A stretch of 59,924 bases of DNA from a virus (taxonomy: Duplodnaviria > Caudoviricetes), in IMG/VR virus record IMGVR_UViG_3300035682_000040, positions 1 to 59,924 of that record; one strand, given 5' to 3'. This document shows positions 25,155 through 48,392 of the stretch, piece by piece. How positions within the stretch are numbered: the first letter of the stretch is position 1; each line of letters begins with the position of its first letter. A program made the position numbers and the translations under genes. Below the pieces are notes generated by a model that saw only the letters and a program-made list of their open reading frames with translations, did no database searches and was not told the origin of the DNA.

Positions 25155-26080
25155 TAAAATAATTCCTGTACACGCATAAAATCCATATTACATCCTTTTT
25201 CATTATGTTCTTTCATAATTTCACCCATTGACCACAAATTATAGGCAGCTCTACTTTGATAAGTAGTACTTAATCTTTCATAGTTAAAACCACCTTTATT
25301 AATTATCTTTAATATGTGGTTACGCTCTTCTTCAGCAAAATTACAAAGATGTTGACCTTTAGTATGACGACTAGGTGATTTATCTGAAAGTGATATATTT
25401 CGATGTTCTTTAGTTACAATCATTCCAAATGAAGCTGATTGTATCCATAATGATGAATCCACTGAGTACCATGGATACCGTTCAATTAGTTTATCCGATG
25501 TAATACCGAAACCATGTACTTTAATACGAGGGTTTCCGCTACCATCGACAAGGTTATTTGACCATACTCTATCCAACCAATTCATAAGTTGAGTAATACT
25601 ACCACCAACCATTCCGCCTAATGAAATATAGGGATAATATTTTATATAATAATCCAAATATTTTTCATCTTCACCAGCATGAAAACATGGTATAGCTTTA
25701 ACACCATGCTTCCACATTCTATTAAGGTTATGATAAGTTAATTCCGCATCACCAATACCGTCCATTCCAGCAGCCATTAAGGTATCATCATCCTTAGCTA
25801 TAATATCAATATTTCTAAGAATATAATTACAATAATCAGAAATAGGGATGTCAACACCTAAAGTAAAAGCTGAGAATGCACCTGAGTCAAGAAATATTTG
25901 TGCATTATCAGCCCTCATTTCATCTACAAATTTTTGTTTATTAACATAATGATAACTTTCAAGAATAGGACCTTTTGCTGCATTACAAACTTTTTCTTGT
26001 TCGTGCAATTCTAATTCAGTATGTTTATTTTGACCTTTACAATATTGGTTAGTATAGACCGCAGCGTTATAAATTTTCAT
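25154..26080 (-). CDS. dpdA: DNA 7-deazaguanine transglycosylase (TGT-like DpdA)
   Basis: FLDSGAFS, P.FH.GE, LGGMV, VHGFG, WYSVDSS.W; sits in a que/folE cluster. Confidence 0.9.
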   Translation of the reverse strand: MKIYNAAVYTNQYCKGQNKHTELELHEQEKVCNAAKGPILESYHYVNKQKFVDEMRADNAQIFLDSGAFSAFTLGVDIPISDYCNYILRNIDIIAKDDDTLMAAGMDGIGDAELTYHNLNRMWKHGVKAIPCFHAGEDEKYLDYYIKYYPYISLGGMVGGSITQLMNWLDRVWSNNLVDGSGNPRIKVHGFGITSDKLIERYPWYSVDSSLWIQSASFGMIVTKEHRNISLSDKSPSRHTKGQHLCNFAEEERNHILKIINKGGFNYERLSTTYQSRAAYNLWSMGEIMKEHNEKGCNMDFMRVQELF

Positions 26081-26970
26081 TATTTAATTTGATCTAAGAA
26101 TTCACGCCTAGCTGAACTTTCATCTAAAATAACACCTTTGAGAGCTGTGGTTACAGTATGATGCCCTTGTTGGCAAGTACCCCTAGATTCCATACATAAA
26201 TGCCTAGCCTTTATACTAACACCAACACCTAACGGTTGCAAGTGTTCAAATAAACAATCAGCAATCTGTGAAGTCAAACGCTCTTGTACTTGTAATCGTT
26301 TGGCGTACATTGATACAATTCTTGATAACTTTGATAGTCCAACAATTCTACCATTTGGTATGTACGATATAGTACATGTGCCAAAGAAAGGAGCGAGATG
26401 ATGTTCACAATGACTATAAAAAGGAATATCTTTGACTGTAACCATCTGGTCATAAGTTTCAGCTCCATCTTCAAATACTTTTAAAATATCGGATGCACTT
26501 TGAGTATAACCAGCACACCATTCTTTCCAAGCTTTAGCTACACGTTTAGGAGTTTCAAGTAAACCACCCCTAGCGGGATCTTCACCTATGTATTGCAATA
26601 GCCTAGTAATATTGTTCTCAATACCACCTACAGCATCACCTTCCCATGGAAATACTATCCATTTATCCATTAAATCATAATTTTCTGATTTATCAATTAA
26701 AGCAAAGAAAGGTAAAGTGGGGTTACTATCTAAAAACTCACTCCAAGTAGCACCTGAATCTATAATATCATCTATAATAAAATCAGCTTCTTCAGGGCTA
26801 TCAACTATTTTGTACCATCCTGGATTTGTTGCCATTAAAGCATAAGCAGCAGGTATTCCACCTCTAGGTACTGGGTACATTTTTCTGTATGAATTAGAAA
26901 TTTCATTATTTAAATCATACGCTAATTTAAAAACATCCTTGTTACTTAGGTAAACGCTATTATTCTCCAT
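26080..26970 (-). CDS. folE: GTP cyclohydrolase I with an N-terminal purine-PRTase-like domain
   Basis: GL.ETPKRVAK, FYSHCEHHLAPF, GLSKLSR, RLQVQERLT, HLCMESRG; N-terminal VPRGG, IIDDIIDSGAT, WIVFPWE. Confidence 0.92.
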   Translation of the reverse strand: MENNSVYLSNKDVFKLAYDLNNEISNSYRKMYPVPRGGIPAAYALMATNPGWYKIVDSPEEADFIIDDIIDSGATWSEFLDSNPTLPFFALIDKSENYDLMDKWIVFPWEGDAVGGIENNITRLLQYIGEDPARGGLLETPKRVAKAWKEWCAGYTQSASDILKVFEDGAETYDQMVTVKDIPFYSHCEHHLAPFFGTCTISYIPNGRIVGLSKLSRIVSMYAKRLQVQERLTSQIADCLFEHLQPLGVGVSIKARHLCMESRGTCQQGHHTVTTALKGVILDESSARREFLDQIK

Positions 26971-29551: not shown

Positions 29552-29577
29552 TAGGGGACTAAAATATTAATCCCCTA
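29552..29577 (-). terminator. Hairpin downstream of the 168-aa gene
   Basis: TAGGGGA-N12-TCCCCTA. Confidence 0.4.
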
Positions 29578-29582
29578 TATGA

Positions 29583-30089
29583 TTATTTTGATTGAGTTAA
29601 ACCATAGAATTTTTTATAAGCCCATAGTTCAGGTGATAAATTTGAAGGATTAATAAAAGCTTCAACTCCATTTTTATCAATATAGGTAGGTGCAGTTACA
29701 GCTTTTAAATCTGAAATTTTACAAACTTCACCTTTCTCATTTGAAATTGAAGTAATTAAAATCCAAATAGCTAATGCTGAAGTATGTTCTGAAGGAAGTT
29801 TTATACCATTTTTAGAAATTCTTTCAGGTTTAGGTGCATTTTTAATAGCTAACTTTTCAGCTTTAGCAGATTCTTTTTCAAAAGCTTTAAGAGCTTTTTC
29901 ATCCAGTTTAGCTTGTTTGGCAGCAATACGTTCTTCATCTTTTTTAACTTTTTCAGCAAATTTAGCAGCTTCTTTAACTGACTTTTCTTTAACTTTTTCT
30001 TCAGCCAATGCAGTTTTTAAATCAACACAACCTTCTAGTTCGTCAATACCTTCTTGCATTAAATCTAAATTTTCTTGATCTTGTGACAT
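29583..30089 (-). CDS. K/E/A-rich protein with a putative C-terminal DNA-binding domain
   Basis: Charged helical N-half; NGIKLP...IW...IN..N...E...YKKFYG C-domain; has its own promoter. Confidence 0.6.
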   Translation of the reverse strand: MSQDQENLDLMQEGIDELEGCVDLKTALAEEKVKEKSVKEAAKFAEKVKKDEERIAAKQAKLDEKALKAFEKESAKAEKLAIKNAPKPERISKNGIKLPSEHTSALAIWILITSISNEKGEVCKISDLKAVTAPTYIDKNGVEAFINPSNLSPELWAYKKFYGLTQSK

Positions 30090-30137
30090 TATTATTATCC
30101 TATTTGGTTTAGTGTGGTTGTTTTTTACAGCACGGTT

Positions 30138-30172
30138 AGTATATTTTACCTAATACTTAATTGCAAGCGTTA
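30138..30172 (-). promoter_or_regulatory. sigma70-type promoter with TAACGCTTGCAA box; heads the regulator-que-dpdA-pol unit
   Basis: TTGCAA-N17-TATACT. Confidence 0.75.
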
Positions 30173-30185
30173 TTTTAACTTATTT

Positions 30186-31859
30186 TTAAAAGGGGAATTC
30201 ATTTATATCAAAATGTACGGAACCTCCAGTTAAAGGAATAGTGTCATCATATTCTACCCATTTAACTTCTTTTTCAAAAATTACTTCTACTATTTCAGGG
30301 TACTTCTTATTAGTCCAAACTTTAATATGACTTGGTTTTCTTAATGAATCTATCAAATACATTGCGGATAAAATAGTATCAGGTGATCTAGAATCAGCCC
30401 TTGATTTCCACCATATATTAGCTTTATTCTTTGCATAACCCTCATGCTCTATACAAATATATTCGCTAAAGATTTTTAGGTTACTATAGTAACTAACTTT
30501 TAAACTAGGCTTAGAACCTGCTTTGATATGTTGTGCATAAGTAATATGGTCTACTTTAAATAGTTCTATTAACGGTAAATCACCTTTTATAAGTTCATGC
30601 GTTCCAGCCTCAGTATTAATTTTGACAATCATTGTAAATTCAGCATCACAATAGGTACAATTCCTTGCACTGGCATGGTTATAACAACTACAGCTATTAC
30701 ATAGCTTAACTGGTGCAGTACCAGCCTTGTCACCTTTTCTTTTTGGTATCAGAGGGTCATTAATAGGTCCTAAACGTCTAGTATTACCAGCAAAATCTAA
30801 AACTAAACAATTTTCTTTACCAGTTTCAGGACTAGGTCGAGTTCCCCTACCTAATAATTGTACCCACAAATTAATAGAAGTAGTTGGTCTTAATACTATG
30901 ATTAAATCAATAGCTTTATGATTAAAGCCAGTAGTAAGGACGTTATTATTAACAACGGCTCGGAGTTTCCCAGATTTAAAATCTTCAATATATTCATCAC
31001 GTTGTTTAGCCCCTATTTTAGAGTGAATTGCTTTACATTCAATTCCTAGCTCGGTTAATATTTCTGCAATGTGGTCACAATGTTCAATCCCTGAACCAAA
31101 AATTAGCCAATGCTTTCTATCATGGGCTAACTCCATTGATTCTTTTAAAGCTTCAAAAGTAATCTCATATTTGTCTACTGCTATTTGTAAATCTCCTTTA
31201 GCATAATCACCATCACTTCCTAACTTAACACCAGTAGTATCCAGTATTAAATTAGTTTGTTTTGGTATTAAAGGAGCCATATAGCCTTCTGCAATCAAAC
31301 GATTGAATGAGTGCATATCCGTAATATCATAGCAAAAATCAGTAAAAATACCATCTTCTGTTATTTTGCCATGCCCCATTCTATAAGGGGTGGCTGTAAA
31401 GCCTATAACTTTTAAATAAGGATTGAAAGCCTTTAATGCACCAAGAAATTTCTTGTACATTGTTTCATCATTAGGATTAACTAAATGAGCTTCGTCTATA
31501 ATGATAATATCCACTTTACCAAACTTAGCAAAGTCCTTATGAATGGAAGCAATACCAGCAAAAATAATTCTTTTATCATAATCTCTTTGATTAAGCGCAG
31601 CGGAATTAATACCTGCCGGAGCAGTAGACCACATACCTAATAACTCTTTAAAGTTTTGTACAATCAATTCTTTTACATGGGTAAGAACTAAAACCTTTTG
31701 GTGTGGATAACGGTAAAAGGCTCTCATTAAAAACATTGAAATACATACAGATTTTCCGCAACCCGTTGGTATAGCACAAACAGGATTACCTGTATGATCT
31801 TCAAAGTAATTAAATAAAGCATCATTACATTCTAATTGATAATAACGAGGTTCAATCAT
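30186..31859 (-). CDS. SF2 DNA helicase (RadD/YejH-like) with C-terminal Zn ribbon
   Basis: PTGCGKS, DEAH, TATPYR, LTTGF, Q..GRG.R, CxxC...CxxC. Confidence 0.92.
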   Translation of the reverse strand: MIEPRYYQLECNDALFNYFEDHTGNPVCAIPTGCGKSVCISMFLMRAFYRYPHQKVLVLTHVKELIVQNFKELLGMWSTAPAGINSAALNQRDYDKRIIFAGIASIHKDFAKFGKVDIIIIDEAHLVNPNDETMYKKFLGALKAFNPYLKVIGFTATPYRMGHGKITEDGIFTDFCYDITDMHSFNRLIAEGYMAPLIPKQTNLILDTTGVKLGSDGDYAKGDLQIAVDKYEITFEALKESMELAHDRKHWLIFGSGIEHCDHIAEILTELGIECKAIHSKIGAKQRDEYIEDFKSGKLRAVVNNNVLTTGFNHKAIDLIIVLRPTTSINLWVQLLGRGTRPSPETGKENCLVLDFAGNTRRLGPINDPLIPKRKGDKAGTAPVKLCNSCSCYNHASARNCTYCDAEFTMIVKINTEAGTHELIKGDLPLIELFKVDHITYAQHIKAGSKPSLKVSYYSNLKIFSEYICIEHEGYAKNKANIWWKSRADSRSPDTILSAMYLIDSLRKPSHIKVWTNKKYPEIVEVIFEKEVKWVEYDDTIPLTGGSVHFDINEFPF

Positions 31860-44705: not shown

Positions 44706-45041
44706 ATGAAAAAATCTGTATCTAAATATGAATTTATGGGCGATTCTGCATTAACTGACAACTTTTCTTACAATGGTTTAGATGCTTTATTCGAGTGGTT
44801 TGAGGAATATGAAGATAGTTGTGGTGAGCAAATCGAATATGATCCTGTGGCTATACGATTAGATTTCACAGAGTTTGCAAGCATAGAGGAAATATCTAAT
44901 TACTATACTGAGATTCCACTTCCACCAGAAGAACTGGATGAAGACGATGAAACTGATTATGATGAAGAAGCATTAGAATGGCTCCGAGATCGTACTTCGG
45001 TGATAGTGTTCGAGGGTGGAATAATATTGCAGGACTTCTAA
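44706..45041 (+). CDS. Highly acidic protein (candidate DNA mimic)
   Basis: GAGGTG RBS; about 32 D/E versus 6 K/R in 111 aa. Confidence 0.75.
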   Translation: MKKSVSKYEFMGDSALTDNFSYNGLDALFEWFEEYEDSCGEQIEYDPVAIRLDFTEFASIEEISNYYTEIPLPPEELDEDDETDYDEEALEWLRDRTSVIVFEGGIILQDF

Positions 45042-45169
45042 TGATTGTATTCTTGACATTGATATTCATTCTTGTGGTTATGTACACATTAAGAATAATG
45101 GTAATGGTGTTCTTCGCAATAGTTTTCCCAGAACAGCAGAAACAAGTAACGCCAAGACGCAGAAGGTAA
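45041..45169 (+). CDS. Small membrane protein, 42 aa
   Basis: TAATG coupling; hydrophobic helix and RRRR tail. Confidence 0.55.
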   Translation: MIVFLTLIFILVVMYTLRIMVMVFFAIVFPEQQKQVTPRRRR

Positions 45170-45176
45170 TAGGCAC

Positions 45177-45209
45177 AAAAAAGCCCTCGATTAAGAGGGC
45201 TTTATTTTT
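45177..45209. terminator. Bidirectional intrinsic terminator
   Basis: AAAAAAGCCCTC-GATTAA-GAGGGCTTTATTTTT between convergent genes. Confidence 0.8.
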
Positions 45210-45423
45210 AAAGGACGTAGTTCTTTTCCTCAGGTGGTTCTGGTAAATCTTCCCCAAACTCAAGATCAGCGGCAACTCGGATTAGTTCCCGAAGCCTCGT
45301 TTTAATCTTGTACAGTTCAATACAAGACGCAGTATCGCCTTTTGCATCTAAGACTTCATTTACAAGCCAGAACTCATCAATGTGGTTAGTCCAAATTCTA
45401 ATATATTTTTCTTTAGCAGTCAT
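45208..45423 (-). CDS. Hypothetical protein (likely start MTAKEK)
   Basis: AAGGAG RBS. Confidence 0.65.
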   Translation of the reverse strand: MTAKEKYIRIWTNHIDEFWLVNEVLDAKGDTASCIELYKIKTRLRELIRVAADLEFGEDLPEPPEEKNYVL

Positions 45424-45424
45424 T

Positions 45425-45601
45425 CTATTCTCCTTCAACTAAGACTTGGGTTTCACCAAGCCACTCTTCGGTTATCTGCCATTTGGCAGATTGTTTTTTA
45501 GCAAGAGCAATCAATTCATGCAGATCGCCAATGGCGATGTCGAACCAGTCGCCTTCCATATTAAAGTATTCTTCGTTGATCCAGACCCATAATGTACACA
45601 T
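45425..45601 (-). CDS. Small hypothetical protein, 58 aa (MCTLWVWINEEYF...)
   Basis: Not in ORF track; AGGAG RBS; downstream of the TTGACA promoter. Confidence 0.7.
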   Translation of the reverse strand: MCTLWVWINEEYFNMEGDWFDIAIGDLHELIALAKKQSAKWQITEEWLGETQVLVEGE

Positions 45602-45651
45602 GTTTTACTCCTAGAAATGGTTAGGTTGGACACAATGCCCAACCAAGCTAT

Positions 45652-45680
45652 ATATTAACACACGTTAATGTTCTTGTCAA
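45652..45680 (-). promoter_or_regulatory. Strong sigma70-type early promoter
   Basis: TTGACA-N17-TAATAT with TGn. Confidence 0.75.
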
Positions 45681-45683
45681 TAT

Positions 45684-45869
45684 TTAAATTATCCGCAACG
45701 TCAAAAGCATCGGATACAGTTTGGTTCCAAGAGCATGGAATTCAAGTTCTGCAAGGTTGTTTTGGTCTAAACATTTAGCACTATCCAAAAGACGTAAGGC
45801 TTGCGCCTCAGTCATCTTGTCTTGGACGAACTCGGCAATCTCAATTAATTGTTCTAAATTGAATTTCAT
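45684..45869 (-). CDS. Hypothetical protein (likely start MKFNLEQL)
   Basis: AGGAG RBS before the internal ATG. Confidence 0.65.
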   Translation of the reverse strand: MKFNLEQLIEIAEFVQDKMTEAQALRLLDSAKCLDQNNLAELEFHALGTKLYPMLLTLRII

Positions 45870-45879
45870 TCTTATTCTC

Positions 45880-46008
45880 CTAAAATTGATAAAGATAAAC
45901 AGCAATGGTAGACAGAAATAGTGCAATAGAAAGAGCAGCCATTCCAACCTCAATAAGATTGAATAACTGTCTTTTTTGTGCAGACGGAAGGTTTTTGTAG
46001 TCTTTCAT
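45880..46008 (-). CDS. Small membrane protein, 42 aa (MKDYKNLPSAQ...)
   Basis: Not in ORF track; GGAG RBS; C-terminal TM helix. Confidence 0.6.
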   Translation of the reverse strand: MKDYKNLPSAQKRQLFNLIEVGMAALSIALFLSTIAVYLYQF

Positions 46009-46065
46009 TTTGTACTCCGATTAGACATAGCGATATTGCTATTTTATACAGTCTAAAATAAACCG

Positions 46066-46098
46066 TATAAAATAGCAGGGCAATCAAGCCCTGCTATT
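46066..46098 (-). terminator. Intrinsic terminator after the sigma54-driven gene
   Basis: Perfect 11-bp stem AATAGCAGGGC-N6-GCCCTGCTATT, followed by TTAT on the minus strand. Confidence 0.7.
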
Positions 46099-46106
46099 AT
46101 TAGCCC

Positions 46107-46577
46107 TTATGCAGTGTGGTTTTTTAACCACTTTTTGTAATTATTGATTTCAATACCAATATTGGCAACATTTACTGGCTTACCATTGGCACAATACAAA
46201 CCCATGCTATCAATAGCACCTATATACAGCTTAGTGACTGAAGTTTGAGTAATACCCAACTCAATGCAAGCTTGCCGAATCATATAACCGCTGGTGCCTG
46301 CTTTTAACTCACTATCGCCATAACCCTTGCTATTGCCAAAAGCATTCAGTTTTGATGCTTTTGGCTTATTAGGCGTTACAGTTGGTTTGATGCCATTCAT
46401 TTCATTTTGTGCCGCTTGAATGGCAAGTTCACGGTAGCTTGCCATGTCATTTGCAAGCTTAGTTGCCTTTACTGTATGGGCGTAAACAATAGCCCTTGTT
46501 TTAAGTGTTGGTAACTTGCCATTGATAACCAGTGGCAAGTTTACTGATTGAATTTTTTTAGTTGCTAATTTAGCCAT
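46107..46577 (-). CDS. Basic protein, putative DNA-binding regulator (156 aa from MAKLAT)
   Basis: AGGTG RBS; Lys-rich; C-domain resembles that of 29583..30089; first gene after the sigma54 promoter. Confidence 0.65.
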   Translation of the reverse strand: MAKLATKKIQSVNLPLVINGKLPTLKTRAIVYAHTVKATKLANDMASYRELAIQAAQNEMNGIKPTVTPNKPKASKLNAFGNSKGYGDSELKAGTSGYMIRQACIELGITQTSVTKLYIGAIDSMGLYCANGKPVNVANIGIEINNYKKWLKNHTA

Positions 46578-46633
46578 GATATACACCTATATATAATTGA
46601 TTGACACTAACACGCGTTAGCTACCTTAGGTAT

Positions 46634-46650
46634 AGCAATGACCATGCCAA
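46634..46650 (-). promoter_or_regulatory. sigma54 (RpoN) -24/-12 promoter
   Basis: TTGGCATGGTCATTGCT versus consensus TGGCACG-N4-TTGCW with exact GG-N10-GC spacing; predicted start about 46623. Confidence 0.85.
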
Positions 46651-46677
46651 CTATACCAAATATATTAATACCTTATT

Positions 46678-46856
46678 AATCAATTACTTATAATAACATA
46701 CTATCATACTAGGTTATTAGATTGCACCACATTAGTGCATATCACGCACCATAATAGTGCTTGTCACTGTAACATATTGATTTATATACATTAATTAATC
46801 ACCTCGTGCACCAAATCAGTGCAGGTTTTAACAATACCTTATTAATCAATCACTTA
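46678..46856. promoter_or_regulatory. Three IHF-consensus sites (WATCAANNNNTTR)
   Basis: AATCAATTACTTA (46678-46690), AATCAATATGTTA (minus strand, 46770-46782), AATCAATCACTTA (46844-46856). Confidence 0.75.
46723..46823. promoter_or_regulatory. Three NtrC-consensus enhancer sites
   Basis: TGCACCACATTAGTGCA (46723-46739), CGCACCATAATAGTGCT (46745-46761), TGCACCAAATCAGTGCA (46807-46823); consensus TGCACY-N5-RGTGCA. Confidence 0.8.
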
Positions 46857-47032
46857 TCCCCCCATGCCGGATTATTTTGAAAAAAGTGGGCGGTCTACCT
46901 CCCTACCACCAGACTCCCATTTTAGCTACCTAACACTTGTAAGGTACTATTCCAATATCCCTATTCTCAAAAATATGGATGAACCCTATTTAGCCGCCTA
47001 ACACATGTAACCCAACTAATCTCACGCACTCC

Positions 47033-47061
47033 TTGCATTGTGGTCATTATTGTGCTACTGT
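47033..47061 (+). promoter_or_regulatory. Candidate sigma70-type promoter for the dcd-lysis-packaging arm
   Basis: TTGCAT-N17-TACTGT with TGn; two boxes upstream at 46931 and 46999. Confidence 0.5.
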
Positions 47062-47095
47062 ACCCAAAATTCCTAATCCCAATACCCTATATCCT

Positions 47096-47653
47096 ATGAG
47101 CGTTATATCTTATTCTGAATTATGTGAACTTGTTGAAGCTGGTGTTATCAATGCTAAACCCAGTCAAATTAATGGAAGTTCAATCGACCTAACATTAGAC
47201 AATATCATTCGCACTGAGTCACCTAACACTCACGGCAAGCCAATTGACTTAGCCATTAAAGAAAACATCATCACCGCAGCGATTGACCTTAACAATAGCC
47301 CCTATCATTGTGGTTACATCATGCAACCAAACGAAATGATTCTAGCCTCATCCTTTGAAGTTTTTAACTTACCACATAATATCAGTGCTGAATATAAACT
47401 AAAATCCAGTATGGCGAGGAATGGCTTAGAACATCTTAATGCTGGCTGGTGTGATGCAGGTTGGACTAATTCTAAATTGACACTTGAACTTAAAAACGTA
47501 AATCAATTTCATAAACTATTATTAACTGTGGGTATGCCTATAGGTCAGGTTATATTCTACAAACATGAACCTGTACCTGTAGATAAGTCATACTCTATTC
47601 GTGGTCAGTACAACAACCAAACTGAAGTTACTGAATCAAAAGGAATCAGGTAA
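47096..47653 (+). CDS. dcd: dCTP deaminase
   Basis: Q.N..SIDLTL, KSS.AR.GL, AGW.D.GW...LTLEL.N, I.Q..F, Y...G.Y..Q. Confidence 0.88.
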   Translation: MSVISYSELCELVEAGVINAKPSQINGSSIDLTLDNIIRTESPNTHGKPIDLAIKENIITAAIDLNNSPYHCGYIMQPNEMILASSFEVFNLPHNISAEYKLKSSMARNGLEHLNAGWCDAGWTNSKLTLELKNVNQFHKLLLTVGMPIGQVIFYKHEPVPVDKSYSIRGQYNNQTEVTESKGIR

Positions 47654-47895
47654 TGGTAGATAGCAACGAGCAACGAGAATTAATTAGGCAGACTGTGAAA
47701 GAGACTTTACTTTCATTAGGTATTGAAGTAGACGATCCTATTAAAGTACAAAGGGATTTTCAGCATTTAAGGGAGTGGCGTGAAACTACTGAAGCCTTAA
47801 AGTCCAAAGGGTTAATGACGTTGTTTGGTGTAGTCCTAGCAGGTATTCTAGGGTTTATTTGGTTGGGGTTTAAAGGTTCATTGGGAGTTAAATAA
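47653..47895 (+). CDS. Single-TM protein, putative holin/antiholin
   Basis: C-terminal TM helix; TAATG-coupled to the endolysin. Confidence 0.5.
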   Translation: MVDSNEQRELIRQTVKETLLSLGIEVDDPIKVQRDFQHLREWRETTEALKSKGLMTLFGVVLAGILGFIWLGFKGSLGVK

Positions 47896-48392
47896 TGAAA
47901 GATATTTACGATGCTGATATTAAAAGGTTTCACAAAGAATATAATTTGCCGTTTGACTGGACTTTAGTAAAAGCTCAGTTGTTTCAAGAGTCGGGTTTAA
48001 ACCCTGAAGCTTGTAGCCCAGTGGGTGCTAAGGGTTTGGCTCAGTTTATGCCTGCTACTTGGGAAGAATACACTATTAAGTGTGGCTTGCCTGCTAAAAC
48101 TAGCCGTACTGATACTGTTGCTTCAATTCAATGCTGTGCTGCTTACATGAGGGCGTTAATTACGCAATGGAAAAGTAAAAGGACAGAGGTTGACCGCTAT
48201 AATTTAGCATTGGCTTCATACAATGCAGGTCTAGGTAACTTGCTGAAAGCACAGAAGATGGTTCATGGTGCTACGGATTATGCTACTATTATTTCAGCAT
48301 TGAAATTTGTTACTGGAAATGAAAATGCTTTACAAACTACAGATTATGTGGTTAAAATAAATGAGTTTCATAGATTATTAAATAAGAAGTAA
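47895..48392 (+). CDS. Endolysin, soluble lytic transglycosylase (SLT) family
   Basis: QESGLNP, SPVGAKGLAQFMPAT, ALASYNAG. Confidence 0.9.
   Translation: MKDIYDADIKRFHKEYNLPFDWTLVKAQLFQESGLNPEACSPVGAKGLAQFMPATWEEYTIKCGLPAKTSRTDTVASIQCCAAYMRALITQWKSKRTEVDRYNLALASYNAGLGNLLKAQKMVHGATDYATIISALKFVTGNENALQTTDYVVKINEFHRLLNKK

Follow-up and report, generated by a model that had tools for sequence, protein, structure and literature searches.

A small basic phage protein behind a putative sigma54-type control region shares its C-terminal domain with a Queuovirinae-like core protein encoded before queE

The DNA analysed here, referred to as the window, comprises an entire virus record (IMGVR_UViG_3300035682_000040; 59,924 bp) with direct terminal repeats and a G+C content of 34.9%. 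It is the complete 59.9-kb genome of a phage with a Queuovirinae-like build and a cluster of genes for the 7-deazaguanine modification of DNA. The gene at 46107-46577 on the minus strand encodes a small protein, P0001, which profile comparisons and structure models identify as a real paralogue, via its C-terminal domain (C-domain), of P0002, the product of the gene at 29583-30089 on the same strand. Judged from its sequence, the control region of the P0001 gene resembles a bacterial enhancer-dependent promoter of the glnAp2 type, with NtrC-type boxes, an IHF-like site and a -24/-12 element. We propose that NtrC and sigma54 of the host would turn on P0001, which would in turn modulate the step in which its paralogue P0002 takes part. 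We assign a probability of about 45% to this composite reading, and most of the doubt falls on the shared target and on the host's sigma54. The kind of promoter and the family of uncharacterised phage domains are both known; new is their combination.

P0001 starts with ATG and has 156 amino acids, an isoelectric point (pI) of 9.84 and a net charge of +13. The open reading frame (ORF) is real, as assumed in an earlier first-pass annotation of the window, and its homologues share the same MAK... start. Nine close homologues have identities of 61-81%. The family is small: just 13 matches were found among 1.84 billion representative sequences, and these included two spurious repeat proteins. P0013 and P0023, giant tandem-repeat proteins rich in Thr and Pro, were dropped as relatives. 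P0001 has no family in Pfam, PHROGs (E<=0.1) or NCBIfam, and a profile of its family found nothing at E<=10 among the PDB sequences.

The first-pass annotation had aligned the C-termini of P0001 and P0002 by eye. Pairwise methods fail to recover this alignment. BLASTP of one protein against the other returned only an unrelated stretch of 13 residues (E 1.3) and no alignment of the C-termini, and the Smith-Waterman alignment of the C-terminal parts, confined to the last 16 residues, had a score of 32 that was reached by 124 of 2000 shuffles (p ~0.06), i.e. at the level of chance. The identity is 15 in 78 aligned pairs. All this would fit a chance resemblance between two unrelated genes. However, profile-profile comparison, with profiles built from the close homologues plus 11 kept representatives for P0001 and from seven homologues for P0002, argues strongly for homology. 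hhalign aligned residues 71-152 of P0001 (46122-46367, minus strand) with residues 85-163 of P0002 (29601-29837, minus strand) at a probability of 93.8-94.6% and E-values of 1.7e-7 to 6.7e-8, in essentially the register that had been seen by eye. The score of 51.8 compares with 15.5 for one reversed profile and with 17.0 for the best of 30 column shuffles. A MAFFT alignment of 24 sequences from both families has the same register, and G81, T95, W101, E143, and K148 are nearly invariant in it. In addition, two matches link the P0001 family to PHROG families of the P0002 group, one of 16 proteins matching phrog_21588 (6e-4) and one of 16 matching phrog_18634 (0.016).

The AlphaFold2 models are in agreement with the sequence alignment. 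The model of P0001 (mean predicted local distance difference test score, pLDDT, 72.8; 86-91 for residues 90-150) has helices at 96-107 and 115-123, a hairpin at 128/134, and a helix at 137-154, and the model of P0002 (mean pLDDT 80.1; 85-94 for the C-domain) has helices at 104-119 and 125-129, a hairpin at 135-145, and a helix at 148-161. Both thus have the order helix, helix, beta-hairpin, helix, compared here as an order of elements and not as a superposition. With the profile-profile E-value near 1e-7, its clean controls, the common element order, and the cross-matches to the same PHROG group, a merely fortuitous resemblance of the two C-termini is highly improbable.

The homology does not extend to the N-terminal parts, which had also been described as alike because both are rich in Lys and Ala. 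This holds for the composition only. Residues 1-70 of P0001 contain 26% Lys plus Ala, are basic (pI 10.2), and have one helix at 28-60. In contrast, residues 1-84 of P0002 contain 36% Lys plus Ala together with 21 Asp or Glu residues, are acidic (pI 5.1), and are modelled as a single helix of about 60 residues. The profile alignment stops short of these parts, and they are unrelated. Distant relatives of P0001 (P0014, P0017, P0018, and P0022) have Lys/Ala/Pro-rich N-terminal tails of the KPAAKPVKKPV type, and tails of this kind resemble histone H1-like proteins. Together with the charge of P0001, this suggests that the target shared with P0002 would most likely be a nucleic acid.

In P0002 (168 amino acids), a long helix rich in Lys, Glu, and Ala precedes the shared C-domain. 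Its gene represents, in the window, a core gene of Queuovirinae-like phages (PHROG 18634/11298; gp46 of phage CAjan). The protein matches phrog_18634 (2.7e-9) and phrog_11298 (1.5e-5). A search with a merged alignment of the P0001 and P0002 families returned 144 proteins, and all nine of those examined match the same two families, both of which are uncharacterised. With the relative P0087 as query, tblastn found 151 phage records, including the Queuovirinae 9g, Seurat, CAjan, JenK1, and NP1, and it also reached phages of Vibrio, Rhizobium, Acinetobacter, and Sphingomonas. The position of the gene is typically conserved: it follows the helicase gene and directly precedes queE in CAjan, Knedl, NP1, and R31B, while one gene is found between it and queE in HD01 and several in RHEph05. 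P0002 has the same place as the proteins of PHROG 18634/11298 (with 17772 and 21588; gp46 of Escherichia phage CAjan, gp40 of Pseudomonas phage NP1, gp35 of Xanthomonas phage IVIA-DoCa3), i.e. after the helicase and before queE. P0002 had been said to head a replication/modification operon; its gene is the one directly before queE and is itself preceded by the genes for primase, ligase, Sak4, SSB, exonuclease, and helicase.

P0001 differs from these proteins in several respects. It shares the C-domain at the profile-profile level only and has no direct PHROG match at E<=0.1, its N-terminal part is different and basic, and its gene lies at a distance of 16 kb, where it opens the early region next to the divergent intergenic region, with a sigma54-type promoter and a terminator of its own. 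Duplication of the C-domain as such is not unique to the window. The Acinetobacter phage HD01 (L010, PQ437329.1) has two copies, at 29755-30135 and 31044-31286, which are two genes apart and upstream of its que genes; their labels are "transcriptional activator" for the one and "FtrA domain-containing" for the other. Particular to the window is the relocation of the extra copy, which now comes first in the early region, behind a control region of the sigma54 type.

The P0001 gene is the first leftward gene beyond a divergent intergenic region of 446 bp. The -24/-12 element TGGCATGGTCATTGCT is found at 46634-46649 on the minus strand, 57 nt 5′ of the ATG; its GG and GC parts have the correct spacing, and it is close to the RpoN consensus TGGCACnnTTnTTGC, as given in PMC8743547. 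Further upstream, two adjacent NtrC-type boxes, TGCACCACATTAGTGCA and CGCACCATAATAGTGCT, are present at 46723-46761 with starts 22 bp apart, and a third, distal box, TGCACCAAATCAGTGCA, is present at 46807-46823, so that the spacing is 62/22 bp (no strand is assigned to the boxes). They stand 75-175 bp upstream of the -24/-12 element and have 1, 3, and 2 mismatches to the 17-bp consensus TGCACCAnnnTGGTGCA from the same paper. The core GCAC-N7-GTGC occurs three times in the 59,924 bp, each time within 46724-46822, compared with an expectation of 0.17, and none of 100 shuffles reached three. Between the boxes and the promoter is an IHF-like site, AATCAATTACTTA (46678-46690, plus strand), inside a 25-nt repeat; it fits the IHF consensus WATCAANNNNTTR, and such a fit is weak evidence in AT-rich DNA. 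The two copies of the 25-nt repeat (46667-46691 and 46833-46857; 96% alike) each contain an IHF-like AATCAAT(T/C)ACTTA, and the former copy separates the boxes from the promoter, whereas the latter lies immediately past the distal box.

The promoter pattern recurs in related phages. Six loci have DNA upstream of a P0001 homologue, and for five of them (the window, L003, L004, L007, and L008) a match to TGGCAY-N5-KTGCW was found in it. The sixth, L001, is off by one base, its element being TGGCATGCTTACTGCT. The homologues of L007 and L008 are just 47% and 43% identical to P0001, yet the -24/-12 match is present upstream. L001, a contig of 57.5 kb with a homologue that is 65% identical to P0001, also has three identical boxes TTGCAC-N7-GTGCAA with a spacing of 61/22 bp. 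When the window, L001, and L004 are aligned, no base of TTGGCATG or TGCT differs, while all five bases between them vary. In L007 (95-170) and L008 (150-205), two to three tandem copies of TGGCA(C/T)G are spaced by about 32 bp, and the last copy alone has a good -12 part; these copies are followed, before the gene, by a sigma70-like TTGACG...TATGAAAT.

Another explanation of the control region is that the 17-bp palindromes are operators of a different dimeric protein, encoded by the phage (possibly P0001 itself) or a regulator of the host, and that transcription has a start of the sigma70 type. A sigma70-like TTAATA-18-TATAGT with an extended -10 (a preceding TG) does overlap the -24 element, and three operators in a divergent intergenic region are the classic arrangement of lambdoid phages. 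However, neither L001 nor L004 retains the sigma70-like -10, in contrast to the invariant bases of the -24/-12 element. Of the 17 positions of the NtrC consensus, the boxes share 16, 15, and 14, and they are at the usual distance of enhancers, with the IHF-like site between them and the promoter, and the -24/-12 match is found even before homologues with identities of 43-47%. We consider operators of this kind unlikely and the control region as a whole, from its sequence features, to be probably sigma54/NtrC-dependent.

Downstream of the P0001 gene, a hairpin resembling an intrinsic terminator, AATAGCAGGGC-ttgatt-GCCCTGCTATT, is present at 46071-46098 on the minus strand, with a U-tract to 46065. 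It starts eight bases past the stop codon, has a perfect stem of 11 bp and a loop of 6 nt followed by UUUAU, and has a folding energy of -20.8 kcal/mol (z -3.95) that was matched by none of 200 shuffles. In L001 and L004 the tops of the stem differ yet remain paired, with stems of 12 and 13 bp, respectively. The next gene starts about 60 bp past the hairpin, beyond a conserved AT-rich stretch. With a sigma54-type element upstream and the hairpin downstream, the P0001 gene is plausibly its own transcription unit, and the earlier description of a stand-alone gene between such a promoter and a perfect 11-bp hairpin holds, both elements having been located. The stretch after the terminator (45950-46066; TTTTAGACTGTATAAAATAGCAAT...) is almost invariant across the window, L001, and L004 and probably holds the promoter of the small early genes that follow.

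The same annotation had proposed that P0001 and P0002 are winged-helix-like regulators, one of them nitrogen-induced, and that the pair could switch the phage between lytic growth and a stalled/carrier state. Several observations are compatible with such a switch. The homology of the C-domains is real, P0001 is basic, and some database records label relatives of P0002 as "transcriptional activator" or as having an FtrA domain, e.g. CAjan gp46 and HD01_00031. Furthermore, no helix-turn-helix (HTH) regulator was found among 35 small ORFs (Pfam) and no integrase or repressor among 40 ORFs (PHROGs). These scans, together with those of P0001 and P0002, agree with the statement that the phage has no recognisable integrase or CI-type repressor; the ORFs were drawn from 96 listed ones, the structural genes excluded. 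However, the fold is not that of a winged helix in the models: the single hairpin of the domain is placed between helices 2 and 3, and no further element comes after helix 3 in either of them. No winged-helix chain is present among the matches listed by Foldseek against PDB and by VIA-align, where absence from the list does not exclude the fold. The FtrA/AraC label has no support from Pfam: no AraC or HTH family was found in P0002, nine relatives, CAjan gp46, HD01_00031, or Knedl CDS0050, and the accessible parts of the Vid5 paper give no experiment behind the label "FtrA/transcriptional activator". In addition, the complete P0002 has a pI close to neutrality (6.65) with an acidic N-terminal part, and it is encoded by a core gene, within the replication/modification module, of phages that are regarded as virulent. 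For such a gene a housekeeping function fits better than a switch between lysis and lysogeny, and we regard the proposed switch as quite unlikely.

For the shared domain, FF domains are the top structural neighbours in VIA-align (2cqn, Z 5.7, root-mean-square deviation (rmsd) 2.6 over 60 residues; 1uzc, Z 5.6; 2doe, Z 5.6). The Z values of the FF-domain matches, 5.1-5.7, are below the level of 8 that is meaningful for this tool, and the Foldseek E-value is 2.6. Myb-like or homeodomain-like DNA-binding domains follow in VIA-align with Z values of 4.0-4.4, likewise below that level. With the full model of P0002 as query, the ranking is swamped by the long helix. Foldseek found nothing at E<=0.001 in PDB and BFVD, and in the ESM Atlas nothing exceeded 0.76, with TM values of at most 0.35. 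The likeness to FF domains lies in about 60 residues that form a bundle of three helices, with helices 2 and 3 separated by a short element (rmsd 2.6-3.1 over 57-63 residues). In contrast, the identity is 5-10%, there is no sequence relation to the C-domain, and FF domains are eukaryotic phosphopeptide-binding modules.

From this likeness, the C-domain could be an FF-like protein-binding adaptor, by which P0002 would dock an enzyme of replication or modification or the RNA polymerase, and P0001 would be a conditional competitor or an alternative adaptor. A charged helix of 60 residues, as present in P0002, is typical of spacer or coiled-coil arms, and the fixed place of P0002 between the helicase and queE would suit such a role. 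On the other hand, Z values <8 may reflect just a common arrangement of helices, and the Foldseek searches gave no match at the threshold named above. We rate an adaptor function of this kind as somewhat unlikely.

Under the composite reading, host NtrC and sigma54 acting on P0001 and P0001 on the step of P0002, a diverged extra copy of the C-domain encoded before queE has come to stand first in the leftward early region, as a one-gene unit, and the further events might be as follows. Upon nitrogen starvation of the infected cell, NtrC and the sigma54 RNA polymerase of the host would switch P0001 on, and P0001 would engage the target of P0002 through the shared domain of about 70 residues. As P0001 is devoid of the long acidic helical arm of P0002, it would tune the step of P0002 or compete with it; this step may be replication, DNA modification, or middle transcription. 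From its sequence context, P0001 is plausibly an accessory copy controlled by the nitrogen status of the host.

Several findings weigh against this composite. The -24/-12 motif alone is near chance, with eight matches in the window (<=1 mismatch) compared with 4.6 expected. The whole intergenic region is 77% conserved across the window, L001, and L004, and the conservation of the motifs in it therefore discriminates only modestly. In L004, half of each box is altered, with CACC-N7-GGTG in place of GCAC-N7-GTGC, and the difference between the half-sites of the window and L004 looks as if the boxes were co-evolving with a phage protein, as operators might. One RNA run searched over 45000-48000 contained only short contigs of relatives, 85-99% alike and scattered across genes and intergenic DNA, and is no expression evidence for P0001. 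No match in the family libraries or fold searches ties the C-domain to any DNA-binding family, and the best structural neighbours, the FF domains, are protein-binding modules.

The host adds to these points. The genome of the window phage encodes neither sigma54 nor its activator. The bin G001, which contains L001, is a candidate host bin, though it could be an incomplete one or stem from an organism other than the host. It contains glnA, but neither Sigma54_DBD nor Sigma54_CBD, and its best match to Sigma54_activat has 29 bits, i.e. true enhancer-binding proteins were not found in it, as would be expected if the palindromes were operators and the start of the sigma70 type. By eye, no -24/-12 element or NtrC box is present in the region upstream of the G001 glnA. 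The sampled contigs of G001 (L015-L017) have a G+C content of 31-36%, which fits the phage. The bin is labelled Neisseria, but the 31-36% of these three contigs is unlike that genus.

Among known systems, the E. coli promoters of the glnAp2 type are the closest in layout, with a -24/-12 element near TGGCACnnTTnTTGC, several boxes near TGCACCAnnnTGGTGCA, and an IHF-like site. The difference is that the putative control region described here is on a phage genome, which has no gene for sigma54 or an activator. The use of a host promoter of the sigma54 type by a phage has a parallel: the virulent Pseudomonas phage YuA has a sigma54-like promoter alongside sigma70 promoters, as described in the accessible text of PMC10914365. 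YuA is, however, unrelated to the window phage, and that text describes no NtrC enhancer. A preprint (bioRxiv 10.64898/2026.10.06.757011) describes a protein of a T4-like phage with a resemblance to enhancer-binding proteins; this protein is unrelated to P0001. Full-text literature searches gave nothing on the P0001/P0002 family and nothing on an NtrC enhancer that drives a phage gene.

The analysis gives a first handle on a domain that at least 151 sequenced phages retain, among them 9g, Seurat, and CAjan as tractable phages of E. coli, and that is tied by its position to the genes for 7-deazaguanine DNA modification. It also yields a candidate for a lytic phage that reads the nitrogen status of its host via the host's enhancer-dependent transcription, and the control region is short enough for direct testing. 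The adjustment of phages to starved lake hosts is the ecological question touched by it. A more far-reaching version is that a virulent freshwater phage took over an entire nitrogen-starvation enhancer of its host, with NtrC boxes, IHF site, and sigma54 promoter, and that a trimmed paralogue, made only in starved cells, competes with the core protein for a common target. Replication and the 7-deazaguanine modification of phage DNA, which is costly in nitrogen, would be slowed or re-routed as a result. Such a brake, sensing nutrients in a phage that has no genes for lysogeny, we consider a long shot.

The sequencing runs that contain the window phage are labelled as lake water. Its layout, as derived from PHROG scans of the 40 ORFs, is that of a siphophage like the Queuovirinae. 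At the DNA level, the window is not similar to any record of the phage collection searched, and DNA and protein searches of that collection with the window, P0001, and P0002 as queries gave nothing useful; a scan of viral contigs contained no relative of the window. The leftward array comprises primase, ligase, Sak4, SSB, a Cas4-type exonuclease, helicase, the P0002 gene (29583-30089), QueE, QueC, and QueD, followed by GTP cyclohydrolase, a DpdA/Tgt-like protein, a clamp-like factor, DNA polymerase, RusA, and thymidylate synthase. A sigma70-like match, TTGCAA-17-TATACT, precedes the P0002 gene at 30138-30166 on the minus strand and is a match to the consensus only, and a hairpin of 11 pairs (-15.8 kcal/mol, z -4.4) is present directly 3′ of the gene at 29552-29577 on the same strand. 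The ORF for GTP cyclohydrolase (26080-26970) encodes 296 amino acids, and its PHROG match is confined to residues 117-295, which leaves some 115 residues of an N-terminal extension without assignment.

The rightward array starts at 47033 and comprises dCTP deaminase, endolysin, terminase, portal, and capsid. Just upstream of this dCTP-deaminase/late array, two direct repeats of 27 nt (46916-46942 and 46984-47010; 81% alike) read TTACA(A/T)GTGTTAGG..GCTAAA on the minus strand and have been preserved in both L001 and L004. A palindrome related to them, CTAAC-N4-GTTAG, is present at 46607-46624 in the 5′ leader of the P0001 gene. The 27-nt repeats and the palindrome may be sites of a regulator for the divergent promoters.

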